Source of the DNA: a virus
IMG/VR virus record: IMGVR_UViG_3300013126_002744
Coordinates: 4,784 to 68,783 of that record
Direction: 5' to 3' (one strand)
DNA length: 64,000 bases
Both the position numbers and the translations under genes were made by a program. The notes below the pieces were generated by a model. That model saw only the letters and a program-made list of their open reading frames with translations, had not been told where the DNA came from and searched no databases. Shown here piece after piece: positions 646 through 32,157 of this stretch (position 1 is its first letter; each line of letters opens with the position of its first letter).

Positions 646-1866
646 TTAGTATTGGGTTCGTCCAACAGATATTGTTAGCGTATACGTGATTGCTAGTGTG
701 CGGTTCTTTGATTTTAAGATTGGACTGAAAATCAAATGAGTTAGCAGACGTTCACGCTCTGTTGATGGATTTGTTGGAGAGTTTTGGACACCAGCAATGT
801 TACCTGTCACGGGTGTTTCCAATGTTGCACCGAGTGGCGGGTTTAGAATGCCGAGAAGGATGTCTGTTTCTGGACCCGATAAATCAACCGTTGATGCAAC
901 ACCAGTTGTCGCGCTTTCAACGGCTAGGTATCCAAACGTTTGAGCGCCTGCGATGGATGGGAAGTTACCACCAGTGTTATCAGTGATCAACATTTTTGCG
1001 TAACCAGGCAATGCCGAAGTTCCACTACCAGTAAAACCCCAAGCTAGATCACTGGTGTTGATCGCTTCACACAGATCACCATAAAGAATCTGTTTGCCAA
1101 CACCGCTGCCACCAGTTGAGGGTGTGGTGAACGTTAGGGTAATTGAATTACCACCATCAACGGAAATGTTGAATGAATATGTTGTTCCTGGTAATAGTCC
1201 TGTATCATCAATTGATGTCTTGTTTAACACGTTAATGTACTGGTACCCCGAGGTGTCAATCGCTGGGGCGCCTTGAGTGTAAAGACCAATTTCATCAAAG
1301 ATGAAATCAGTTTCTGTGCTCTGTGCTGGTGCCAACGCATCTGTGCCAAACTGGCTACGTGGCTCATCGCCATTGATCGTACAAGTGATAATAACTTCTG
1401 TTTGAAGGCCTAATTCGCGGCTGCGAACGCCTGGGCCTGATACGTGCGGAACGGATACAGGATCTGATGCTGGAAAGGCCCCACCGCCTAGACGCACGCC
1501 TGTGTTCATATCTGCTGAACCAGGATCTGTACCAAGTAGCGTGTTCAGAACTGTTTGACCCTCATCAATGATTTCGGAATATGTCTCACGATAGATGCGG
1601 CTGTCCCAAGTTGCAATATCAGGTGCTTGTCCGTCGTTTGGTGTGCGATATGTAACCGTGCGAGCGGCATCAACAACAGTGCCACCATTGCCAAATGCAA
1701 TGCGGTGAATGAAATAGTTGTGCTCGTTTGCTAGTGCGCGGGCAAAGACGCACGCAAGGTTTTGCGGATGAACAGCGTTTGTTTGATCTAAAAGAACATT
1801 GCCTAAATCATCAACAATTTTGCAGTGTCCTAGTACGTTTACCGATAATTCTTGTTTGAGTGCCAT
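646..1866 (-). CDS. virion structural protein (baseplate or tail-fibre attachment type)
   Basis: IAFGNGG, FDEIGLY and LLTHLIFSPILKS motifs; late promoter at 1891-1897; last gene of the baseplate cluster. Confidence 0.65.
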   Translation of the reverse strand: MALKQELSVNVLGHCKIVDDLGNVLLDQTNAVHPQNLACVFARALANEHNYFIHRIAFGNGGTVVDAARTVTYRTPNDGQAPDIATWDSRIYRETYSEIIDEGQTVLNTLLGTDPGSADMNTGVRLGGGAFPASDPVSVPHVSGPGVRSRELGLQTEVIITCTINGDEPRSQFGTDALAPAQSTETDFIFDEIGLYTQGAPAIDTSGYQYINVLNKTSIDDTGLLPGTTYSFNISVDGGNSITLTFTTPSTGGSGVGKQILYGDLCEAINTSDLAWGFTGSGTSALPGYAKMLITDNTGGNFPSIAGAQTFGYLAVESATTGVASTVDLSGPETDILLGILNPPLGATLETPVTGNIAGVQNSPTNPSTERERLLTHLIFSPILKSKNRTLAITYTLTISVGRTQY

Positions 1867-2159: not shown

Positions 2160-5100
2160 TTACACCGTCTTTCCGTATTTTTTAGTTACCGTTGATGTGC
2201 TTTCATCGATTCCACCAACATCAAAGTATTGTGTGTCAAACCCGGTTGGAATTACACTGTGAATAAATGTGTTTGTGGTCGCTGATGACACAGACATGTT
2301 GCTTGCAAACACTAGATCACCATCAAATCCTGATGTGTCGTGGCTGGGGACATCATACCCAAAGTCACGAATAAATCCTGTGTATGGTTGGTTTTCTTCA
2401 ATTTGTGCTGTTACAAAATCAATATCATCCATTATAAATTCAAACTGGATATATTCATGAATGTTGGTAGCCGCATATAATAGCGATTGTTCCTTGCTTG
2501 GGCAAGAACGCTCTGTTAGAGAGCTCATCACATGAGAATCCAAATCATACGCCATTACACCATCGTAGGTTACGAACGTCGGTGATGTTGCATGCACCCG
2601 CTCATTTACATAAACTCGGGCTCGCGCACTTGATTCGTTTGTTGTGCGGATTATTGTGTATGTTCCATTATTACGCGAGTTAAACGTGTCTCTCACGGTG
2701 ATGTGAGTGCCTGGAACGTATATTTCATCTTGTGTTACTGTCAATATACCTGATCCAAATGTTGTTATGTCGACGTAATCTGTCCAATTGCGCGGTTTTC
2801 TAACTTTGGACAGCGCAAAAATGGATGGGGTATCCATCTCATTCTCAGATACGGTGCTCAGCGGTGGGACAACTGGAATAAAATAGTATTCTGCATCAAA
2901 TACTAGCGGATCAGGTAACCCATCTTTGTTGGCGTCAGACTCGCTTGTTGACACCTTAACCTTTGTGCCCTCAACCCATCGTGGTATGTCTGCTAGGTCT
3001 ATCGAGACAGACAATATACCATCCGGTGACGATAAACGTGATATTTGTTTTGTTACATATACCTCAGTTGTTCCAGCGGTGTGTACGGTGGAAGCGACAG
3101 TATATTTTCCCCACCCCTGTTTGTTGGTGCTCGATGTAACATACACCGTTTCACCAACCTTGATGTCAACTTCACCTGATATTATCCATTTGTTTTCTGT
3201 TGAGTCAAATCCGGTGATAGTATACGGTCTTGAGAATACAAACTGGTTTGCTGACAGAGAGGTAGTGGAGAATGATGCAGATTGGAACTCATTGGTTGTG
3301 TCGACCAAGAATGTATTGCTGACGCCGTATTGTGGATCTGCTGTGTCATCAATCTGTCCAACTGCACTGACAATTTTGAGTTCTTTTGGATTAGCATAAT
3401 CCAATGACCACGAGTAGTTTGTTCGGGTGTAGTTGTGTATCCATTGTGAGCCGTCCCAACGTTGAGATACATTTGTAATCGGATGAACCCAGACCGCACC
3501 TACCGGAACATTGTCCATTTCTGGTTCAAGAAGGCTATAAGTTATCAACGGTGCATAACGCAGTGTTCCTGTGCCAAATGCTTTGTAGCCGGCCGGTTTT
3601 TCTATATACCCATCAGTTGTTGTTGCTGTGGAAGGAATTGTTTCCAATACCGTGAGTATTGTTGTAGGGCCCGCGCCTGGCGTCTCTTCAACACCAACCA
3701 CTGTGTATACACCATTTGCGTCCGTGTATACACCATTTGCGTCCACGTATCCACCAATTTTAATTTTGCCGCCAATTCCGAAGTATCGTGCACGATGTCC
3801 GTTGATTGTCCATGTGGTTGTTGTTTTAGCAATGATATCAAATTGGCTGTGAAACACAGGTTCAACAACTGGTATTATTGTTGTGCGACGGGATGGGTGT
3901 TGGATACGGCCCGATGCTGTTGCAGATGGTGGTATCGTCCCTGATACAACAACTGTGGTCACATACGGTTCAACAGTCGGCGGGATTGAATCTGCTGCAA
4001 CAACATACATTCCATTTGCTGGACCATATTCGTTGTCAGACACAAACAAATGGTCTCCAGCACGGAAGCGTTCAGCATACTGCCCAGCGATTTTCCATTC
4101 ATTTCCTGCAACTCCAACAATCTCGTAAACTGGAATAATGGGACTCTGAAGGATGCCAGATGGTTGGGCCGATTGAGAGATTTCCTGTGATGGTTTTACT
4201 GTGATGATTGTAACATATTGATTTTGCAAATATGTTTGATGTGGTTGAATTTTAACATCTAGCAACCTGCGAAGTTGTCCTGATGCTGTGGTGGCTTGTG
4301 GTATAGTTCCTGCAGCGACTTCAATATCAACCGTGTAATAATTGACATCAACACCATTAACATTAATCGTTTGTACGGACACAGTTGTTACTGATACAAC
4401 TTCATACGTCTTGTTTGATTCATCAAAGTCGTTGTTGGTTACAGATATTGTTTCTCCGATTATTATTTCTGCTGGGTCAAGTGTGGTGATTCTCCATTTG
4501 TTATCATCCGCTTGGACAGTTTCAATATTAAATTCAGGATACAAAGCTCGTTCAGTTGTATCAACAATGTAATACTCATTTGATGTTGGGTTGTTTGTGA
4601 CACTGACGTGACTGCCTGATGGAAGCGTGTTTGTGTGTTGTCCAAGAACAATCCACTGCCCAGGATAAATTACCCAAGCATTGAGCGCATTTTCATCCAG
4701 AACATTTAAATCTCGTTCAATGCGGGATGGTCTGACACCAACTATGTTGAGGTCTGGGGTTTGATCAGGAATTTGATTACCATCAACACTGACACCAGGA
4801 ACATATCCAGGATATGGTTGCTCTTTAACAGTGTATATTCCAGCACCTAGTTCGTTTGGTGATGTGTTGGCTATGATGATCTGCTCGCCAACTTGGAATT
4901 CATCAATGTAATCACCGTCAATAATCCAACTACCACCCGTGCCTGTTACAGCACCAACGATTTTATAATCTGGTGTTACTGTTAGTTGGATTGATGCCGC
5001 TGTTTTATTTGGAACAGTTTGTTGAGCAATTACGTGAACTGCTGTGCGGTATGGATCCGTTGGTTCAACAATTACCGAATTTAATGCATGATCAACAATG

Positions 5101-5435
5101 AATGTTTTTGAAGATGCATCACTATACGTAACAAGGAATCTATCCCCTGCTCTGAATTTTTCTTGATGATGCCCTTGAATATACCAAACCCCACCAGCCC
5201 CGGCGGCAGTAACTTCGTTCACCACCTGATAGTAGCACGACTGAGCACCATGTTGTTGAGTAATATCGGTGTTCCATTTTTCACTGACCTTTACACGAAC
5301 AGTTTCTTTGTAGATGTATTCAATCAACACATCCATAATCTTGCTGTGGTATGGTTTGATGGTGTTAGTGTAACGGACGAGTCCTTCCGCCGCATCAATC
5401 TTGAATAGTGAATTAATTAAGTTAGATTTTGCCAT
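2160..5435 (-). CDS. large virion structural protein with repeated beta modules, 1091 aa
   Basis: Recurring W.I.G...F..G...NG.Y.V modules; IKPYHSKI motif; baseplate operon. Confidence 0.7.
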   Translation of the reverse strand: MAKSNLINSLFKIDAAEGLVRYTNTIKPYHSKIMDVLIEYIYKETVRVKVSEKWNTDITQQHGAQSCYYQVVNEVTAAGAGGVWYIQGHHQEKFRAGDRFLVTYSDASSKTFIVDHALNSVIVEPTDPYRTAVHVIAQQTVPNKTAASIQLTVTPDYKIVGAVTGTGGSWIIDGDYIDEFQVGEQIIIANTSPNELGAGIYTVKEQPYPGYVPGVSVDGNQIPDQTPDLNIVGVRPSRIERDLNVLDENALNAWVIYPGQWIVLGQHTNTLPSGSHVSVTNNPTSNEYYIVDTTERALYPEFNIETVQADDNKWRITTLDPAEIIIGETISVTNNDFDESNKTYEVVSVTTVSVQTINVNGVDVNYYTVDIEVAAGTIPQATTASGQLRRLLDVKIQPHQTYLQNQYVTIITVKPSQEISQSAQPSGILQSPIIPVYEIVGVAGNEWKIAGQYAERFRAGDHLFVSDNEYGPANGMYVVAADSIPPTVEPYVTTVVVSGTIPPSATASGRIQHPSRRTTIIPVVEPVFHSQFDIIAKTTTTWTINGHRARYFGIGGKIKIGGYVDANGVYTDANGVYTVVGVEETPGAGPTTILTVLETIPSTATTTDGYIEKPAGYKAFGTGTLRYAPLITYSLLEPEMDNVPVGAVWVHPITNVSQRWDGSQWIHNYTRTNYSWSLDYANPKELKIVSAVGQIDDTADPQYGVSNTFLVDTTNEFQSASFSTTSLSANQFVFSRPYTITGFDSTENKWIISGEVDIKVGETVYVTSSTNKQGWGKYTVASTVHTAGTTEVYVTKQISRLSSPDGILSVSIDLADIPRWVEGTKVKVSTSESDANKDGLPDPLVFDAEYYFIPVVPPLSTVSENEMDTPSIFALSKVRKPRNWTDYVDITTFGSGILTVTQDEIYVPGTHITVRDTFNSRNNGTYTIIRTTNESSARARVYVNERVHATSPTFVTYDGVMAYDLDSHVMSSLTERSCPSKEQSLLYAATNIHEYIQFEFIMDDIDFVTAQIEENQPYTGFIRDFGYDVPSHDTSGFDGDLVFASNMSVSSATTNTFIHSVIPTGFDTQYFDVGGIDESTSTVTKKYGKTV
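3703..3744. repeat. 21-bp perfect in-frame tandem duplication (DANGVYT x2)
   Basis: gtgtatacaccatttgcgtcc x2. Confidence 0.9.
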
Positions 5436-5441
5436 ATTATT

Positions 5442-8400
5442 TTAGTCATCAAATTGCCCAGCAACATCAAGTATGCGGATGCCATGCAAAGCAAGCCAGG
5501 ATGTTTTCATCAGTCCTTTATATTTAGACTGGGTCACCAACGCATCTGATAGCACATCAAACCAGATACCATTGGTGTGATATGAGTCAAATGTGTTGTA
5601 GATAAAATCGCACATCTCTTTGACTTGTTGCGGATCGCTCCAGAACACATCCTCTGTTGCTGGGAATACTTCGAAGAAATGGTTGATATCAACCGGCTTG
5701 AAGTTATGTGATGGATCTTGTAAGTAGCTCACGATTGTTGCTCGAGCATACTCAGGGTTGACAAAGATCTGGTCTTTACCAAATCCATAGCGAGTGCTTG
5801 TTCCATACGTCATATCATAATGTTCACGCTCGAAAGATGGGACACGCTTGGTGAAGTCATCATACTTACAACCCATCAATGCTTCAGTCATCTTAACCCA
5901 TAAATCTTGAGGGACAGCACCGATTTGTTCACGACGGAACATGAACCACTTCTCATGCTTATTCTTCACATTCATGTAGTTGTGATCCGTTTCCAAGGTA
6001 TCACGCAGCGTTAAGTCACGAGTGAATTCAACCACGTAACGGTCACCTTCATTGATGTATCCTGTGATTTGTGATAGCACTACCTTGCGATAGAATATTG
6101 AAGGCATGTATTGATGGTTGCTGTTGTACGCAATATACATGTCATCATCCCATCCAGTTTTTGCCCACGGTGGAACATCCCACCCCTGCATCCATAAATC
6201 ATCCCGTGGATCTTGAACAATCATGTATGGGGTTGGGTTAGCAGCAAGTTGGGCTGCTATTTCTGACGTTGACAAGCTGCTTCTGTCCGCTGGGTTGCGG
6301 GTTGTTGTGTTTTGGACCCAGAAATAGTAATACAAATATGTGATGTTGTTGTATGTTCGAGTTGTTGTGCTGAACTCATACGTTTCAGTCCATTGCTCGA
6401 GAGTTACACCATCATCAGTTGTGTCTGGATCAAACTGCAGTTGTTCTTCGGTTAATACAGGAATTGGGCGAACAACATCAATGATGTCTTGCTCACGAAT
6501 AATTGTCTGTGTGCCTGTTAAACTTATAGTGTTGTTTGCGAGGATCACATCGGTTAAAACAACGCTTCCGTTAACATATACACTGACGACATCACCAGTT
6601 TCCCAACGCTCATCTGTAACAACCAGTTCTGGCTCTCTGACGTTTGGATTGTCAACAAAGTTGTACTCAAGAGCAGCATACAGACGCTCACGGATTAGTG
6701 GCTTGCGAATCCAGTTATCACTAAACGGTGGAACAATGTGAATCTGAACTGGAACTCCAGTCAGATCAACCACGTTTCCATCCTGATCTACAACAACAAA
6801 CTCATTTGTTTGAATGTCATAGTTGAACACAGTGTATGTAAGTGTAACATCAACGCTATCAGGGAATGTGATGTTAGGATCAATAGCACTCATCATGAAC
6901 ACGCTTCCATCTTCATACGTGTTGTTTGATGTATTCAGTTCAACCAGCCCCGTCGCTGGATTAACAATGGTTATTGTATCAAACTTTCTTGTGCGCTTAA
7001 ACACGGTTTTTCTTGGCGTTCCAGTAACCTTTTCCGATTGTGGGATTGTGATGTCAGATGCTTGTGCGGCAACTGTTACATCCCACTCACTTGGAGCCAC
7101 CAATGACTCAACCCATGTGTATACATCAACAGAGCTCCACTCAGGTCTCTTACCCCACTGGTAGATGCGTTGTTCAATGTCTGGTGTTAGCACATCGTCA
7201 TAATACGGCAAATATTCAAGCGTTGATGTCTGCAACCATGTAGTGCCGACTTGTGGGAATGTCCATGGTGACATTAAGTTGTCAACCTGTGTTAGAGTGC
7301 TGCTGTAATGTGCTGGATCTTCCGGATTCTGCAAATCAACATTGTGAATTGCTTGCGTTGAGTGAATTCCAAACGCTGGATGCCATAGCGGGACATCATC
7401 CAATTTTACGTGTGATTTTGTGTCCAACAGACGTGCTGGGGTGATCTTGTCTTCGCTTGGTTCAATTGTGAAGATGATCAGTTTGTCAGCAAAACCGTAG
7501 TGTGTGACATTACCACTCGTACCAAGCAGTGTTGTGCTGTCGACAAATATGTGCGTTGTCCAGTTTGGTTCCTGCTCTGTTCCATCGTTGACTAATTCCG
7601 ATTTGATTACGGAATACAATCCTGATACCTGATCAGTTGTCAATTTGATCTTATCGCCCGCCAAAAACACGTTTGCATACTGTGCGTCAAACCCCGTTTG
7701 TTCATTGGATGTGACAATCAATTCGTTTCCTTGAATGGACGTAACAGTGTATGTTGTTGCTGCAAACTTAATAATCTCTGAATTCACACGAGAGTAACCA
7801 TTTGCTTGTGCAACTTCATTCATGATTTCTGTACGGTAGTCGATCAGATTTCCTGGTTGGTTCAAACGCTGGCGTAGGATACGAACACCTTCGCAGCGTT
7901 TTGGTAGTTTCATATAACCGGTCATACCAACCATTGACACATCTGGACCGACAACATCAATCCATCCACCATCAATATACTGGCGAGTGTATATCACCGG
8001 AGTTGATGAGTGATTGACGTGAATCCAGTAATCAAGAGTGTTCTCCCCATTCTTTGGATAGTATGTTTCTGTTGGTGTTGTTCCATCAGTCGTTGAATGT
8101 GTAACATATAGACGCGTCATAGTTGAGATAGATGCGTCCAGGAACAACGGTGACTGAATTTCTTCACGTTGTTGTGGGAAGTCCACCCAGCGATTGTTGT
8201 CACGGAATGACACTGTGTCAAATCCACGGCGAACGTCATCAATGATGCTCTTGTCAATATCCGTCGGTGTGGTAAACTTCAAACGGACGTCCGTTTTTGT
8301 ACCATCGTCACCAAACAACTTGATTTGTGGATAAATTTTTGAACGGCTCTCACCAAATTCAGCAATCTTGTATGCCCAGAATTCGTCAACTTTGGCGTCA

Positions 8401-11400
8401 ACAAATTTCTTGCTGTTGATGTATGCTTTTACAGAGTTGATGGAACCTTTTGATTGGATCATGCCACGGTAGAACAAGAATTGTGATTTTGAATTCACAT
8501 TCAATAAGTCGAGATACGACATAACACTGTCATTGGAGAATGCTTCTACTGTTTGATCTGGATTGTAGCCAAGTAAATGACGAGCATATCGTGCTTCTTG
8601 AGTGCCTTCTGTCAGTTCAAATGCATCATAGTACTGACGCATATCTTCGATGCTGCCTTCAAAGTTTCGCTTGAATGCACCATCCGATAGATAATAACCT
8701 CCCAATGTTGGGCGAAGTGTGTAATCCGTCTTTTCAAAATAATCAAGATCAAATCGCTTGATGTATAAACCCAGGAACGGATCATATACAAGATCATCGC
8801 CAACCGTGTAATCATTGAACATGATGATGTGCTCATACCCCTCAACAAAGAAATGGCCACCGCCAATATGCAAATAATTGTATGGATCAACGAACCCAAA
8901 TGGATACAGTTCAACGTCGTTAGGAATGCCTGCGCGCACAGATATGCGCGACATTTTATCTTCACGATATACGGTGATTTTGTCTGCTGTTAACGCTCTG
9001 CCATACTGATCGTACAGTTTCTGGCTGACACGGATGTCCGCGTATGGTCCAGTGATGATATTTGACAACATTCCTTGTGGTGTGCGAATCCATACGTTGT
9101 TTCTGATTGGATTGAGCTCAAAAGACGGGAATGTTTGTTCTCTAGTAAACAACGCAATGTGCATTATACCGCTACCCATTGTTGATAGATCAACAATTGT
9201 AGTTTCATCAACCCTGGTTGACACAGATAATTGGAATACCTGTGGGTCGGATGTTGTAACAAGATAGTACACTGTGTTACCAAACAACGGTTGTGGTAGT
9301 GTGCCTGTTGTTGTTACAGCGAGTTTTGTACCTGATGTCCATGATGGAGCGGCTGTCGTAAACCGCAACGTATTTGCTGTCATATCATTGACGGTAAATT
9401 CATAACGGTCGTTGAGTTGCAGACGGGAGCGTCGGAGTCCATACGCCCAATCAATAAAGCGCTCCATTTCAACTTGCCATGATACCGGACGGCCTGTGTC
9501 TGTATCATATTCAACAAAGTCGTTTGAGTTGTTATAAACAACATTCTTGTCGTTTTGCAGTTGTGTGTAGCCATCGATCATGTTGACGAGTGTCTGCATC
9601 CCAACAATGGTTTCTGGTAGTGTTGCTGTACGGACATCCGCGAGGTTTGGCTCATAGTGAATCCAAAGATCTGTTGATGCACTATTGCCACCAAACACCT
9701 GGAATGATGATTTGATTTTACCGATTGTTATATCACCGATAGGATCACTGGTAATATCAACAGCAATGTTGACTTGCGCGTTGCTTGCTGTCGTCGCAAG
9801 TTTGATACGGCGATCATCAACAACAATCACATAGTATGGTGTTTTATCTGCAATTGGATACGGTAGTGCTGATGTTGCTGACATCACTACAACATCACCA
9901 GTATTCCAATTGTGTGCATAATCTGGAATGTCAATAACCCCGTCACGAATTGACGTTGCAACATTTTCAGCAACTTTAACGCGCGTCATATCATTCACAG
10001 CGTCAAACACAGCATTAACTACCGTATAAACACCATCATTTGTTGATGAATTGGATACAGTTATTGCAACACCCTCCAAGAAGAATGGTGTCTGGTCGTG
10101 TCTGATTTCAAACGTGTTGATGGATGCTGTTACATCATCAATGTCAAATTGGAATGCTGTCAGTACATCCGTGTCACGATCTATCATAAATGGCCATATT
10201 TGAGGACCATAATACTCAATCGTTCGTGACACAGGAGCAAGTGCATCAACAACAATTTTCCATTTAGATTGGTTGTTGTATTGAATAATTGCTGGTGGTA
10301 TCGACAGTATTGTCAATTCAAACCCATCAACCCACTTTTCACTAATAACACCACTGTTTGCTAAGATAACACTATAATCCTTTTCAGTGACATCAAAGTT
10401 CTTGTTGAATATTTGAAGTGTGTTTGTGTCAATGATGCCTGCAGTCTGGTATGACTGTTTTGGCGACCAGTTCGTCCACATTTCACGGAAGCCAACGTTT
10501 GTGTCAAATCCTTTGAACCTGTTGAAGTTGACATACCACTGATTTAATCCGTTTGTTTCATATACCTTATTTTTGTCGTATATGTCGCCATGGAACAGTG
10601 CATTTTTATGACTGTACACCTTTTTACCAATGACATCTACCTGGAGTCCACCAATCGTTACGTAATCTAATCCAAATGTTTGGTATAGGAATTTAGCAGG
10701 TTGCATTAAGAAAGCAACAACCGCTTCATCATAAACATGCTCGCCAGAAATACTCCACTCCCATTCCGCTGGCCCATATTCACCAAATAGATAATCAGCA
10801 TTTGGTGCAACAACCTGTGTTGAGAATACACGATACAGTGAACGCACTGTTGGGTGGATTGGTGCAACATTTGTGTTGTCATAGTATGGTGGTAGCAGAG
10901 TGTCAGGCTGATATCCGCCTGTTATCTCGCTGTCTGATATATTGACAGAAAAATAATTGTATGTTGGTAGCGAAACATTGTCCGCAGTTGGGTTGCCTGT
11001 GCTTACAATGCCATTGGGATATGCACAACCTGCAGGAACAACACCCGTTCTGATATTTTCCCACATGCCAATTTTTGCGGCATGGTTGTAAACCCATCTG
11101 CGAGTTCCTGTGATGTCAGCATAGTACCCATCCCACCATACAGGTTTTTCACCGTATCCTTGCAGTTTCCATGGTTCCAAATGCGGATAGGCAGTACCAT
11201 ACCACAACTCATAGACAGCTTGCCAACAGGAACGGGGTTCATGTGTAATGCCAGCACGTGGTGGTGTGTCTACCATACACTGTGCATAATTCCATGTAAA
11301 AGCGTCCGTTGCATTGTATGTTGTGTTAACGAACGGTGTTCTGATGTTCTTTTTAACAACATATTCGTTAAAACGCTGTTTCATTCGACCATCAAACACT

Positions 11401-28702: not shown

Positions 28703-30475
28703 ATGGCAACAGTCCGCTTCCACAGCGTATCACTACGCAATTTTCTATCATACGGTAACAACACTACAGTCATTGAACTTGACAACACAGGCACCACACT
28801 AATTGTCGGTGAAGACCTTGACAACACCACCAACGGCCAAGGTGCTAATGGTGTTGGTAAATCGAGCATCATCAACGCTGTTGCGTATGCGATGTATGAT
28901 AAACCAATCTCAAATATTTCCAAAGATAATCTTGTCAATAACATAAACAAGAAGAACATGGAGGTTGCTGTTGATTTTACAGCACCAAATGGCAAGCGCT
29001 ATACAGTCAAACGCACAAGAAAAACAAAGGCTGGGGCGGCTGGCAATGCTGTATTCATTTTTGAGGACGGTAAGGATGTCACACCAGATAGTGTGAGCAA
29101 CGCCAATGAGTTTATTGAAAAGCTGATTGGCATTCCATACGAGCTTTTTGTTCGTATTGTTGTGTTCAGTGCTTCGCATACTCCATTCTTGGACCTGCCG
29201 ACAACGTCTCATTACGCAGCAAACCAGAAGGACATCATTGAAGAGTTGTTTGGTTTGACGATGCTCACCCAGAAGGCCGAGCGGTTGAAGGAGATGATTA
29301 AGGACACAGAGGGTCGGTTATCCACCAATGAGTTGAAAATCAGGGCATTAGAGCAGGAGCGAGAGCGGTTTGAAGCTCAACTTGAGTCCGCTAAAAAGCG
29401 AGTGTTGAACTGGGAGTCTCAGAATGACGAGACCATTGCCGAACTTGAAGCAAAACTCGAATCCGTAGGTGATGTTGATGTTGAAGAGCAGCAACGCATC
29501 CATGCTGAAGTGAAAGAAGCCAAAAAGGAGCTCAATGCTGCCCTTGAACTACAGCGGGAGGTTGAAACCCAAATCAAAGCACTGAAGAAGCAGCAAAAGG
29601 AACTGCTTGCTAATCTTGCTCATTTGAGGGATGATAAGTGTCCGTATTGTTTGCAAGGGTTTAGTGGGGGTGATAAACTGGAAGAAACAGAAAATTTGTT
29701 AATGGAGATCAGCGACAATTTGGGGTCATTAACCACCGAAGCTGAAGCCATAGCCGCTTCCATTTCATCTATTACACACAAACACAACGAGCTCAAAGGC
29801 AGGATTTTATTTACCAATTTAGAAGAACTTTTAACAACAAAGAACCAGAGTACCCAAATCCTGGCAAAGATTGAAGAGCTGAAAGCAGCGACCAATCCAT
29901 ACATTGAACCACTAGATGAGCTGAATGCGATGGCTGTTGATGAGGTGGATTATACTGAGATCAACAAGATCACAAAGGAACTTGAACACCAGAAGTTCCT
30001 GCTCAAGCTGCTGACAAAGAAGGATAGTTTTGTCCGTAAAGCGCTACTGAATAAGAACATTCCGTTCCTGAACCAAAAGTTGGCAGGATATTTGACTACC
30101 CTTGGGCTGCCTCACAAGGTTGAATTTACACATGAAATGACCGCAAGTATCAGTCAATTTGGTCACGAACTTGACTTTGGTAATCTGTCAGCTGGTCAGC
30201 GTGCGCGCGTTAATCTTGCTCTGTCATTAGCGTTTCGTGATGTGCTGCAAAATATGCACACCAAGGTTAATATCTGCATGTTGGATGAAGTACTAGACCA
30301 TGGTTTGGATGGTGTTGGTGTCCAGGCTGCAGTGAAGATGTTGAAGAGAATGGCCCGCGATGAAAAGCTGAGTATGTTTGTGATTACACACCGCGAGGTC
30401 GATACCGCGTTTGATCACACACTAACCATACAACTGTCTAAGGGCTTCTCGTATGTGAAACAAGAGGATAATTGA
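28703..30475 (+). CDS. gp46: Rad50/SbcC recombination ATPase
   Basis: Walker A GANGVGKS, CPYC zinc hook, LSAGQ signature, LDEVLD. Confidence 0.93.
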   Translation: MATVRFHSVSLRNFLSYGNNTTVIELDNTGTTLIVGEDLDNTTNGQGANGVGKSSIINAVAYAMYDKPISNISKDNLVNNINKKNMEVAVDFTAPNGKRYTVKRTRKTKAGAAGNAVFIFEDGKDVTPDSVSNANEFIEKLIGIPYELFVRIVVFSASHTPFLDLPTTSHYAANQKDIIEELFGLTMLTQKAERLKEMIKDTEGRLSTNELKIRALEQERERFEAQLESAKKRVLNWESQNDETIAELEAKLESVGDVDVEEQQRIHAEVKEAKKELNAALELQREVETQIKALKKQQKELLANLAHLRDDKCPYCLQGFSGGDKLEETENLLMEISDNLGSLTTEAEAIAASISSITHKHNELKGRILFTNLEELLTTKNQSTQILAKIEELKAATNPYIEPLDELNAMAVDEVDYTEINKITKELEHQKFLLKLLTKKDSFVRKALLNKNIPFLNQKLAGYLTTLGLPHKVEFTHEMTASISQFGHELDFGNLSAGQRARVNLALSLAFRDVLQNMHTKVNICMLDEVLDHGLDGVGVQAAVKMLKRMARDEKLSMFVITHREVDTAFDHTLTIQLSKGFSYVKQEDN

Positions 30476-30525
30476 TACCCCTTCTCTATCCACCTGTAAA
30501 TACAGGATATTGGATGGAGAGGGTA
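30476..30525 (+). promoter_or_regulatory. RBS-sequestering hairpin with late promoter GTAAATA at its apex
   Basis: TACCC..TCTCTATCCA pairs with TGGATGGAGAGGGTA; inner CCTGT-aaat-ACAGG. Confidence 0.75.
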
Positions 30526-31047
30526 ATGAATTTATTTTTAGGGATTGACCAAAGTTTTACCAGCACTGGAATATGTGTTATTGATGAAGATGGTGTGGTG
30601 AAGCACCACGAAACAATAAACACTAGCGATCAGAACGGGGATATATTTGCAAGAGCAAATGTCATTCTTGAGCGTATTGAGTGCTTAGTTTTAGATCATA
30701 GTCCCAGAATGATTGGGATTGAAGGGCTTGCATTTAGTAAGTTTGGTAATGCAACGCGTGACTTAGCTGGGCTCCAAATGGTGATTGTTGCTGGAATGCG
30801 CAGGAAGAATAACAGGTGGAATGATGATTTAGTTATTGTTTCACCGAACCTTTTGAAAAAGTATGCATCAGGCTCCGGTAGTGCTGATAAGGATAAGATG
30901 TATGAAGCATTACCTGAGGATACAAAGGTAGTTTTTGCAGGTTATAAGAAAACAAAAGGTCGGAGCGATGTAGTTGATGCGTTTTGGCTTAGCAAATTTA
31001 TTTTAGACATATATAAGAAGACACATGAAGCTAACCGACCTGGTTGA
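30526..31047 (+). CDS. ruvC: Holliday junction resolvase, RuvC family
   Basis: LGIDQSFTSTG, IGIEG, LKKYASGSGSADK and DVVDA; true start at 30526. Confidence 0.85.
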   Translation: MNLFLGIDQSFTSTGICVIDEDGVVKHHETINTSDQNGDIFARANVILERIECLVLDHSPRMIGIEGLAFSKFGNATRDLAGLQMVIVAGMRRKNNRWNDDLVIVSPNLLKKYASGSGSADKDKMYEALPEDTKVVFAGYKKTKGRSDVVDAFWLSKFILDIYKKTHEANRPG

Positions 31048-31567
31048 AATGCTAACACCCGGTACTGTCAATATTGATTGGCATGACGATGTAGGTGTGT
31101 TTGTAGTCGGTAATACATCTTTTGATGCTACCGTAAGACCGGCTAGAAAAGATGAAAGTCAGACATTCATTCCATTTTTCAACACAGTGCCAAATGTGGG
31201 CAACATTGATTATGGTGCTACAGGTCCTGATGGGATCAGAACGCAAGACATAACAGGACAGACAGGCAAGCAAACCGCACTTGTTTATTCTGGTGCGGCT
31301 GATGTTGTGAGAGAGTTGATTCAACGATACAATTACGAAATTTTGTTATTGATTGCTAAACAAACATCAAGCCCCACTAATTATGAGGATAGAGTTAACC
31401 ACTACTCACGAATGGCGTATTATGCCGCAAAGAAGTTTGGGATGATGGATATGTGTTTAGCATCACAACCATCATTCACTGTATATGTAATATTTAAACC
31501 AGAACACTTAAACAATTTGACAAAAGTAAAACATCATTTAGAACAACAACACAACCAGACAAATTAG
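31025..31567 (+). CDS. hypothetical protein, possible internal head protein
   Basis: N-terminus MKLTDLVE. Confidence 0.7.
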   Translation: MKLTDLVEMLTPGTVNIDWHDDVGVFVVGNTSFDATVRPARKDESQTFIPFFNTVPNVGNIDYGATGPDGIRTQDITGQTGKQTALVYSGAADVVRELIQRYNYEILLLIAKQTSSPTNYEDRVNHYSRMAYYAAKKFGMMDMCLASQPSFTVYVIFKPEHLNNLTKVKHHLEQQHNQTN

Positions 31568-31606
31568 ATAACCCTAATTTACCAAAAATAATTTTTCAGA
31601 CAATAG

Positions 31607-31845
31607 GGTCAAACAAAGACCATAACTAGAAACGCACACGGACATACCCTAACTGCCGTGAGAGTTGGAACAGCGCTATGCGTTCGAGCCATCAGGATGA
31701 TACCTGTAAAGTTATGCCTAGCTTGGGAGTAAAGCCTCCTTTATTCATTAATTCTCGCGTTTGGTGCGGTCGTATGGCTGATTGCACAGGTACGCTGGGT
31801 GATTGTTACCCTTAAACCTTGTGCCAGCGGGCATAGAGCTGTATA
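31607..31845 (+). ncRNA. candidate structured non-coding element (RNA or origin)
   Basis: Non-coding, GC-richer than flanks, many nested stems with G-U pairs favouring the plus strand; no family recognised. Confidence 0.45.
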
Positions 31846-31860
31846 TTATTATAATAAAAG

Positions 31861-31910
31861 AAAAACGCTATATAATTGCGAGTGAAACGAGCAAATTATA
31901 TAGCGTTTTT
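31861..31910. repeat. 17-bp perfect inverted repeat around GCGAGTGAAACGAGCA (hairpin; may double as terminator)
   Basis: aaaaacgctatataatt / aattatatagcgttttt. Confidence 0.9.
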
Positions 31911-31929
31911 GTGTAGCTATTGTAACAGA

Positions 31930-32157
31930 CTAATAAACCGGATGCATCCGTTTGCTTTCTTGCTCTAACCGCTCAGATATAAACTCACTGATCATCTGTC
32001 GCTCAGCAAATGACATATTCATCATGTCACGATAACTGATAGAGCCTCTCATAAAATAGACCAGTTGAATAATCGATTTTGTCATGGTATTCACATCTCG
32101 TCTAAGATTGTTGAACATGTTAATGATGTCCTGTTGAGAGCCGGTTTTTAGCGTCAT
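31930..32157 (-). CDS. gp51-like baseplate/tail assembly chaperone; possible frameshift extension of gp26
   Basis: LVYFMRGSISYRDMMNMSFAER; ATGA overlap with gp26. Confidence 0.7.
   Translation of the reverse strand: MTLKTGSQQDIINMFNNLRRDVNTMTKSIIQLVYFMRGSISYRDMMNMSFAERQMISEFISERLEQESKRMHPVY

Follow-up and report, generated by a model that had tools for sequence, protein, structure and literature searches.

The stretch of DNA analyzed here, which we refer to as the window, is 64,000 nucleotides (nt) long and comes from the IMG/VR virus record IMGVR_UViG_3300013126_002744 (positions 4,784 to 68,783), a viral contig of 68.8 kb with a CheckV completeness of about 20%. The subject of the analysis is a short segment of it, positions 31607-31836 on the + strand, which comparison with related sequences assigns to a family of structured non-coding RNAs that is uncatalogued and absent from Rfam 15. 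The element sits between two gene blocks. The block upstream of it, on the + strand, contains a gene for an SMC/SbcC-like ATPase (28703-30475), a gene for a RuvC-like resolvase (30472-31047; Pfam PF02075, E value 7.2e-06), which is the usual upstream neighbour of the RNA, and an open reading frame (ORF) of 180 amino acids (aa) at 31025-31567. The block on the - strand contains a 75-aa ORF and the gene for the baseplate hub protein gp51 (T4 gp51 family, PF12322), whose closest relative is found in Ralstonia phage RsoM2USA (42% identity), followed by the Xanthomonas phages XacN1 and Xoo-sp13 (38%). Between the RNA and these convergent genes lies a hairpin (31861-31910) that can serve as a terminator on both strands; it is an inverted self-match of 50 nt with 82% identity, preceded by runs of A and followed by runs of T, and a terminator-like hairpin is found 3' of the RNA in every homologue.

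Homologues were gathered from loci anchored by sequence patterns and from the loci of gp51 and RuvC. An alignment of the gp51 protein gave 28 related viral loci, in 4 of which nhmmer detects the element, and an alignment of the RuvC protein gave 80 RuvC loci, 17 of which bear it. A pattern made of three conserved words found 13 viral stretches, 10 of them true and 3 false by inspection, and a second word pattern added further viral members. In metagenomes the three-word pattern found 106 stretches; among the 80 listed, at least 6 pass the covariance model R1, which scores 127.9 bits on the window (31604-31743). Once duplicates had been removed, 21 distinct sequences remained from viral and metagenome contigs. 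When R1 was run with its filters off on 11 related loci it gave only matches with E values of 0.96 or more. Three candidates were set aside. The stretch 5191-5293 of locus L013 lies in the expected gap, but its R1 match is weak and inspection by eye did not convince; in L247 and L245 the match is limited to the word of the hairpin P5 described below and is probably due to chance.

The original prediction had placed a structured non-coding element at 31561-31845 on the + strand. Covariation among the 21 homologues bears this out for 31607-31836, while the first ~45 nt (31561-31606) fall outside the element by comparison. Four hairpins, P0 to P3, together comprise 22 pairs, and in a model-guided alignment of the 21 sequences 94.9% of the 412 cells form standard pairs. 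Changes on both sides of the pair are seen in 21 of the 22 pairs (136 cells). None of 500 column shuffles reached any of the pairing measures for P0-P3, and when the pairing partners are slid by 1-3 columns the pairing falls to 30-42%. RNAalifold recovers P0, P1 and P2 unaided, and in the raw sequences the compensated stems are readily seen as well. The cells of P0-P3 hold 9 G:U pairs against 2 A.C combinations, so the folded strand is the + strand, as the G-U pairs of the window alone had suggested. The folding energy says much less. For 31561-31845 the z-score is -1.96 on the + strand, with 6 of 200 shuffled sequences folding as well, and -0.94 on the - strand; for 31607-31836 the values are -1.61 and -0.64. 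The comparison with shuffled sequence that had been proposed as a check therefore came out marginal on energy and positive on covariation, and it is the latter, rather than folding energy, that shows more than chance in these alignments. We consider the conserved RNA structure to be real with little doubt. Run X4 has a related contig (just one, with a depth of ~4) that differs from the window by 5 substitutions and 3 indels, at 31591, 31622-23 and 31747-56, all outside the helices; this is weak evidence which fits a constraint on the fold.

The RNA unit (31607-31836) consists of a 5' core (31607-31743) and a 3' module (31744-31836), which in the window is of the type called B below. The core begins with the hairpin P0 (31607-31621), in which GGTC pairs with GACC around the loop AAACAAA; all 4 pairs show changes on both sides and 97.6% of the cells are paired in the 21 sequences. 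It is followed by the single strand J0/1 (31622-31634), which ends in TAGAAACG and is nearly invariant (alignment A10). The idea that TAGAAACG might be a recurrent promoter word was dropped, since it occurs only once in the window. The hairpin P1 (31635-31662) is the predicted CACGG(a)CA/TGCCGTG stem, and it covaries strongly: 7 of the 8 modelled pairs show both-side changes and 95.1% of the cells are paired. Its stem has 7 positions, the second being a conserved mismatch, and is accompanied by a bulge, an extension of 2 base pairs (bp) and a loop with TACCCT. The junction J1/2 (31663-31673) contains GGAACAG, nearly invariant in A10 and missing only in the minimal members L258 and L252.

P2 (31674-31682, CGC/GCG) is short in the window and at least 6 bp long in most members; all 6 modelled pairs show both-side changes and 96.9% of the cells are paired. 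Both P2 and P0 went unnoticed in the original prediction. The junction J2/3 (31683-31692) has the conserved CGAGCC (A10), and it leads to P3 (31693-31706), the CAGG/CCTG stem that had been pointed out before; it covaries in all 4 of its pairs (88.1% of the cells paired). The remainder of the core (31707-31743) is a TAAAG/CTTTA helix, in which 31707-11 pairs with 31739-43, enclosing the hairpin P5. The AAAG/CTTT part of this helix is conserved, with 79.7% of the cells paired and no both-side changes. P5 has a closing stem of 2 bp (31721-22 with 31734-35) and a loop which holds TTGGGAGT; its closing pair covaries, being GC in 7, AU in 4 and CG in 3 of 15 sequences. The nearly invariant single strands of the core are thus TAGAAACG, GGAACAG, CGAGCC and AAAGT, and the conserved loops are AAACAAA, TACCCT and TTGGGAGT; a contact between the CCC of the P1 loop and the GGG of the P5 loop was considered and is not upheld, both being nearly invariant. 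P2 and P3 are both absent in L252 and L258, and P3 is absent in L007 and L012. This leaves P0, P1 and P5, each with its loop, as the indispensable core.

Attached to the conserved core is one of three alternative 3' modules, A, B or C. Type A has 13 clear members (L010, L035, L037, L157, L018, L081, L061, L007, L248, L282, L305, L293 and L252), and the divergent 3' form of L012 is tentatively placed with them. It consists of a covarying hairpin, P6, and a conserved stretch ending in a run of G. Type B has 5 members, the window, L251, L087, L099 and L243, and type C, which is U-rich, has 2, L058 and L258. In the window P6 (31755-31769) reads TCGC/GCGG, and the CGCG/TGCG pairing proposed earlier is its local form; a hairpin is present at the same place in all 13 type-A members, with 3 different stems and one compensated pair. 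Two other pairings in this part were considered and rejected: one of GGAACA with the type-A TTCC, because L252 keeps the TTCC and is without GGAACAG, and a local type-A hairpin CTGCG/TGCGG, because A.C combinations are found in 5 of the 13 sequences. An enclosing CGYG/YGYG helix is paired in 50 of 52 cells, but with wobble changes only.

The 3' module is joined to the AAAG-P5 segment by a closing helix which we regard as probable. In the window TTATGCCT (31712-31719) pairs with GGGCATAG (31829-31836); no pairing found between J3/5 and the 3' module is better than this run of 8 bp, which is an extension of the long-range TATGCC/GGCATA stem noticed before in the single sequence. The other members have counterparts specific to their type. 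L251 retains 5 of the pairs via C:G/U:G exchanges, type A uses AGTTGA with TCAGCT, and in type C the sequences differ on both sides between L058 and L258. The long hairpin GCACAGGT/ACCTTGTGC (31784-31825), with the inner GGGTGA/TTACCC, belongs to the minimum-free-energy fold of the window and had been listed before. It turns out to be a variable, lineage-specific insertion of type B, mostly kept in L251, the nearest relative, and impossible to align in L087, L099 and L243. A similar fate met four other proposed pairings, the GAAC/GTTC stem, the crossing AGCCAT/ATGGCT, the alternative CAGCGCTATG/CATAGAGCTG and the pseudoknot of CTAAC with GTTGG, the last of which finds no backing in the homologues; all are particular to the window or to its nearest relative.

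The RNA was compared with known families. Rfam 15 comprises 4227 models, and a match was defined as a score at or above the gathering threshold of the family. There were no matches in the window, in 10 homologue loci or in 18 related loci. When E values up to 10 were accepted for 31400-32100, 9 weak matches appeared, all far below threshold and none on the + strand of the core; the one named 'Hatchet' (14.2 bits against a gathering score of 51) lies on the terminator, off the core. ARAGORN found no genes for transfer RNA (tRNA) or transfer-messenger RNA (tmRNA) in the window, in line with the missing tRNA and tmRNA signatures noted before, and none in 11 homologue loci. Searching 50,697 phage records by blastn with the window element and with the copy from L035 turned up either nothing or chance matches of 27 nt inside tail genes. 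A pattern scan of the genomes of 185,579 bacterial and archaeal species gave 79 stretches, none of which passes R1. Together with the compensatory changes, these results uphold the view of the element as a new phage non-coding RNA.

In the literature on structured RNA of jumbo phages and in phage RNA-motif surveys we found no named description of this RNA, and its sequence words turned up only in primers and the like. A survey of structured RNAs in IMG/VR (Fremin et al. 2023, PMC10690425) gives 8495 candidates without names, 29-151 nt in length. Those candidates come from the same data source and rest on the same kind of evidence as the RNA described here, and a fragment of it may be among them; in the main text of that paper, unlike in the setting of this RNA, RuvC and jumbo phages have 0 occurrences each. 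The family is a new one among phage-borne structured non-coding RNAs, and its carriers are uncultured jumbo myoviruses related to RsoM2USA/XacN1, plus one unrelated phage of 35 kb.

The genomic context of the RNA is of two kinds. Directly 3' of RuvC, on the same strand, there are 17 distinct copies. In 9 of the 16 such copies besides that of the window the RuvC stop codon falls inside P0 or J0/1 (offset +2 to +21), and the remaining 7 have it 10-87 nt ahead of P0. The stop is so close that a promoter of its own would rarely fit, and the simplest reading is that the RNA is transcribed together with RuvC; most likely it is the tail of the SbcC-RuvC transcript. In the window a sigma-70-like site at 31565-31592 agrees with the consensus in 9 of 12 positions, and the region has 7 such sites where 5.3 are expected, which is no evidence of a promoter. 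Each of the 17 has a bidirectional terminator on its 3' side, with convergent genes beyond it, so these copies have no downstream gene to regulate. The orientation of the RNA always follows that of the flanking transcription unit.

The other 4 distinct copies are found away from RuvC, in L157/L246, L058, L248 and L037. Two jumbo contigs, G002 and G008, carry two copies each, and the second copy (114 bits) lies among genes for dephospho-coenzyme A (CoA) kinase, a cytidylyltransferase-like protein, a 91-aa ORF and nicotinamide mononucleotide adenylyltransferase/Nudix. At L157/L246 the RNA is placed between CoaD-ORF91 and NadM-Nudix, which is downstream on the same strand. At L058 it precedes a row of CoaE, cytidylyltransferase (CoaD) and NadM-like genes, and at L248 it precedes small unknown ORFs; a MazG-like identity for the 91-aa ORF of L248 has no Pfam support and was abandoned.

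The fourth copy comes from the small phage. The L037 contig is 35.4 kb long, 95% complete according to CheckV, and equipped with terminase, scaffold, major head and adaptor genes of its own. What it shares with the jumbo phages is only positions 4561-4780, 220 nt (223 alignment columns, 83% identity), a stretch that has P0 and the end of the 3' module as its exact limits and leaves out the terminator. Since the shared stretch is the RNA alone, from P0 to the G-rich motif at the 3' side, it sets the outer limits of the unit and shows that the element moves as a cassette. A 299-aa ORF lies downstream of this copy on the same strand; it has no relative in five jumbo contigs and was dropped as a candidate for a partner protein.

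Some side observations concern these loci. Around the RNA in L037, beside the packaging genes, a region of ~2.8 kb (4128-6900) is devoid of ORFs as long as 100 aa, of tRNAs and of Rfam matches. The jumbo phage that has two copies shows, some way beyond each of them, a G+C-rich hairpin and then the 15-nt TCTCTCTATGATGCC, at L035 ~8540-8600 (-) and at L157 ~1290-1335 (-), and this combination may be a phage-specific terminator or promoter signal. L248 (718-960) and L293 (1986-2228), from one sample series, have identical 3' modules and near-identical P3-P5 with different P0-P1; one of them follows RuvC and the other is placed elsewhere, and possibly both come from one phage, which would then be the third with two copies.

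The gap after RuvC can hold other things. In the window it holds the 180-aa ORF, which overlaps the end of RuvC by 23 nt, belongs to no Pfam family and has as its only relative one weak viral match (38% over 35 residues). It stands between RuvC and the RNA in this window only; because the other RNA-bearing RuvC loci have no ORF at this position, it looks like a recent insertion. In L008 the gap holds an RNase H gene (PF00075, E value 1.9e-34) instead of the RNA. On the - strand of that locus (5457-5852) the RNase H gene is accompanied by a G+C-rich stretch of ~400 nt with no credible ORF, in which the words AAACAAA and GGAACAG are present and neither R1 nor Rfam gives a match; it may be a different or much diverged RNA. 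In L013 a 174-aa ORF with no Pfam match (5325-5849, -) occupies the gap between RuvC and gp51, which marks the locus as a hot spot for gene insertion. On the gp51 side, the 75-aa ORF of the window (31930-32157, -) lies directly downstream of gp51 and has no Pfam family. According to tblastn it is kept beside gp51 in nearly all related loci, and it is probably an unrecognised partner in the baseplate module.

The conservation, covariation, strand, boundaries, copy number and contexts of the RNA are demonstrated by the above. The mechanism we favour starts from its position. The SbcC-RuvC transcript would contain the RNA as its final portion and would end at the bidirectional terminator. The 3' module, one of three interchangeable ones, would fold back onto the core through the closing helix. 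The RNA would then work as a compact folded RNA in its own right, not as a regulator of a downstream gene, and the invariant loops and junctions would be presented to a protein, an RNA or a small ligand. That it acts autonomously as a folded RNA, rather than as a cis element, is a proposition for which we find the balance roughly even.

Several points weigh against this proposal. Transcription of the element is something we infer, and so are its release from the messenger RNA (mRNA), its action in trans and the existence of a partner. The overlap with the RuvC stop codon and the portability of the element are equally compatible with a module that acts in cis, be it a ribozyme or an element for stability. 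The thermodynamic stability barely exceeds that of shuffled sequence, and the alignments used for counting pairs were fitted to the model structure and are biased toward it; the structure of the 3' module apart from the closing helix is put forward tentatively. In addition, many relatives lack the RNA. At the sensitivity of R1 it is missing from 63 of the 80 RuvC loci and from G001, a complete relative of 315 kb; it is missing also from 24 of the 28 gp51 loci, some of which are incomplete. Among the cultured relatives R1 found no copy in RsoM2USA and Xoo-sp13 and only noise in XacN1 (E > 0.5). The RNA is consequently dispensable.

A portable module acting in cis on the transcript that carries it, either a self-cleaving ribozyme or an element for processing or stability, is the main rival. 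It could, for example, cut the RuvC mRNA off its 3' tail or protect its 3' end. The RNA lies inside operon transcripts whose genes differ: it can follow RuvC, stand between CoaD-ORF91 and NadM or precede CoaE. In the 9 of 16 RuvC-locus copies mentioned above it overlaps the stop codon upstream, and it moves as a discrete cassette. The conserved nucleotides cluster in the junctions, and the peripheral P2 and P3 vary or are absent; conserved junction nucleotides and variable peripheral helices are typical of small ribozymes. Yet none of the ribozyme models of Rfam 15 matches the core even at E values up to 10, most small self-cleavers are smaller than this core, and a stability element would need no invariant loops. 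We judge such a module to be unlikely, though not so unlikely that it can be passed over.

Somewhat more doubtful still is the thought that the RNA represents a new functional class. It would then be a cassette of ~220 nt exchanged between phages, with swappable 3' outputs, occurring both in a recombination operon and in a salvage cluster for nicotinamide adenine dinucleotide (NAD) and CoA, and it might be either a portable self-cleaving ribozyme or a sensor of adenylylated cofactors of the kind of NAD+, ADP-ribose and dephospho-CoA.

A sensor could also be of the ordinary riboswitch or antitermination type, with the 5' core as the sensor and the 3' module plus terminator as the expression platform. 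In its favour, the conserved core is combined with one of three alternative 3' modules and a terminator hairpin always comes next; all 4 copies away from RuvC, too, have an ORF downstream on the same strand: CoaE-CoaD-NadM in L058, NadM-Nudix in L157/L246, the 299-aa ORF in L037 and small ORFs in L248. A riboswitch aptamer, however, lies 5' of the same-strand gene it controls, and only these 4 copies have such a gene; the 17 at RuvC loci face a terminator and convergent genes with nothing to be regulated. In L157, moreover, the closest hairpin resembling a terminator is ~95 nt past the end of the RNA, with no overlap between the two, and no riboswitch model matches. We find this explanation improbable.

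The original prediction had offered a replication primer as one of its two interpretations. Primers such as the T4 ori transcripts and RNA II of ColE1 form persistent hybrids from which DNA synthesis starts, and a transcript that did so near the recombination genes would fit the adjoining SbcC and RuvC and the RNase H gene that occupies the same gap in L008. A primer or origin RNA would hardly be present in two copies per genome at unrelated places (G002, G008), in an unrelated small phage, and be absent in many relatives, and the compensatory changes keep intramolecular hairpins which a primer hybridized to DNA could do without. Neither an AT-rich unwinding element nor repeats were noticed, and no origin-like feature was found, although no direct origin test was made. 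The primer interpretation has become very improbable, and we put just as little trust in a signal acting at the level of DNA, in which extruded hairpins would serve recombination, packaging or gene shuffling. Hairpins in DNA would likewise be kept by compensatory changes, and the locus is an insertion hot spot (the 180-aa ORF in the window, RNase H in L008, the 174-aa ORF in L013). But the G:U and A.C counts (9 and 2) mean that pairing holds on one strand only, the orientation is always that of the flanking transcription unit, and stems of 3-7 bp with long conserved single strands are typical of folded RNA and would make poor cruciforms.

Fainter again is the prospect that the RNA is a cofactor or guide for the adjacent RuvC-fold nuclease, comparable to the omega RNAs of TnpB and IscB. 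The RNA does start at or within ~90 nt of the RuvC stop in the 16 lineages with RuvC immediately upstream. Omega RNAs go with a split-RuvC nuclease of ~400 aa, a transposon and a variable guide; here the protein has ~160-260 aa between stops and belongs to the resolvase family PF02075, not to the TnpB/IscB architecture, and no variable guide-like segment and no transposon ends were seen. Four copies lie away from any RuvC, and the 63 RuvC loci mentioned above do without the RNA. Least credible of all is that the element encodes a small protein or is a chance fold that does nothing: a 45-aa ORF is present in the window (31678-31815), and the frame K-V/L-D/T-x-L-G recurs where the DNA is conserved, but the ORFs are not conserved (the longest on the + strand is 2-47 aa across the members and at most 8 aa in 5 of the 21), the variation in the stems is compensatory and the indels in helix length are not multiples of three.

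We return to the autonomous folded RNA and to why it matters. Jumbo phages have many genes of unknown purpose and very few described non-coding RNAs. The family has covarying helices, invariant junctions, sharp boundaries, three 3' modules, duplication and a transfer to an unrelated phage, and such features usually belong to RNAs with a specific biochemical job. If the RNA turns out to be catalytic, to bind a ligand or to be a decoy for a host factor, a new class will have been added; if it is only a stabiliser of a 3' untranslated region (UTR), it will still be a rare mobile example. The collected sequences provide a covariance model which is ready for use.

Among known systems the small RNAs derived from 3' UTRs, of the CpxQ/SroC type, resemble this RNA in position. 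They too are found at the end of an operon transcript, at or over the stop codon, and share its terminator; here the offset from the stop to P0 is -87 to +21 nt in the 16 RuvC-locus copies besides that of the window, each followed by a terminator. Such RNAs consist of a short seed plus a terminator, whereas the present RNA has several helices with invariant junctions, occurs also outside 3' UTRs and can be present in two copies per genome. The Rfam families GOLLD and ROOL are likewise carried by phages, have an elaborate conserved structure and no fixed neighbour gene. They are several hundred nt long, while the RNA described here has ~140-235 nt, no covariance-model match and no tRNA genes nearby. 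The small self-cleaving ribozymes (hammerhead, twister, twister-sister, pistol, hatchet and HDV-like) share with it the character of a portable intergenic cassette in phages, although it matches none of their models. With riboswitches it has in common a conserved core, a variable 3' part, a terminator and, for some copies, a place beside genes for nucleotide cofactors; it differs from them in that most copies have no downstream gene and in that no known class matches. Primer and origin RNAs such as RNA II of ColE1 and the T4 ori transcripts are also found near replication and recombination genes, but this RNA occurs in multiple copies, in unrelated contexts, and many relatives do without it.

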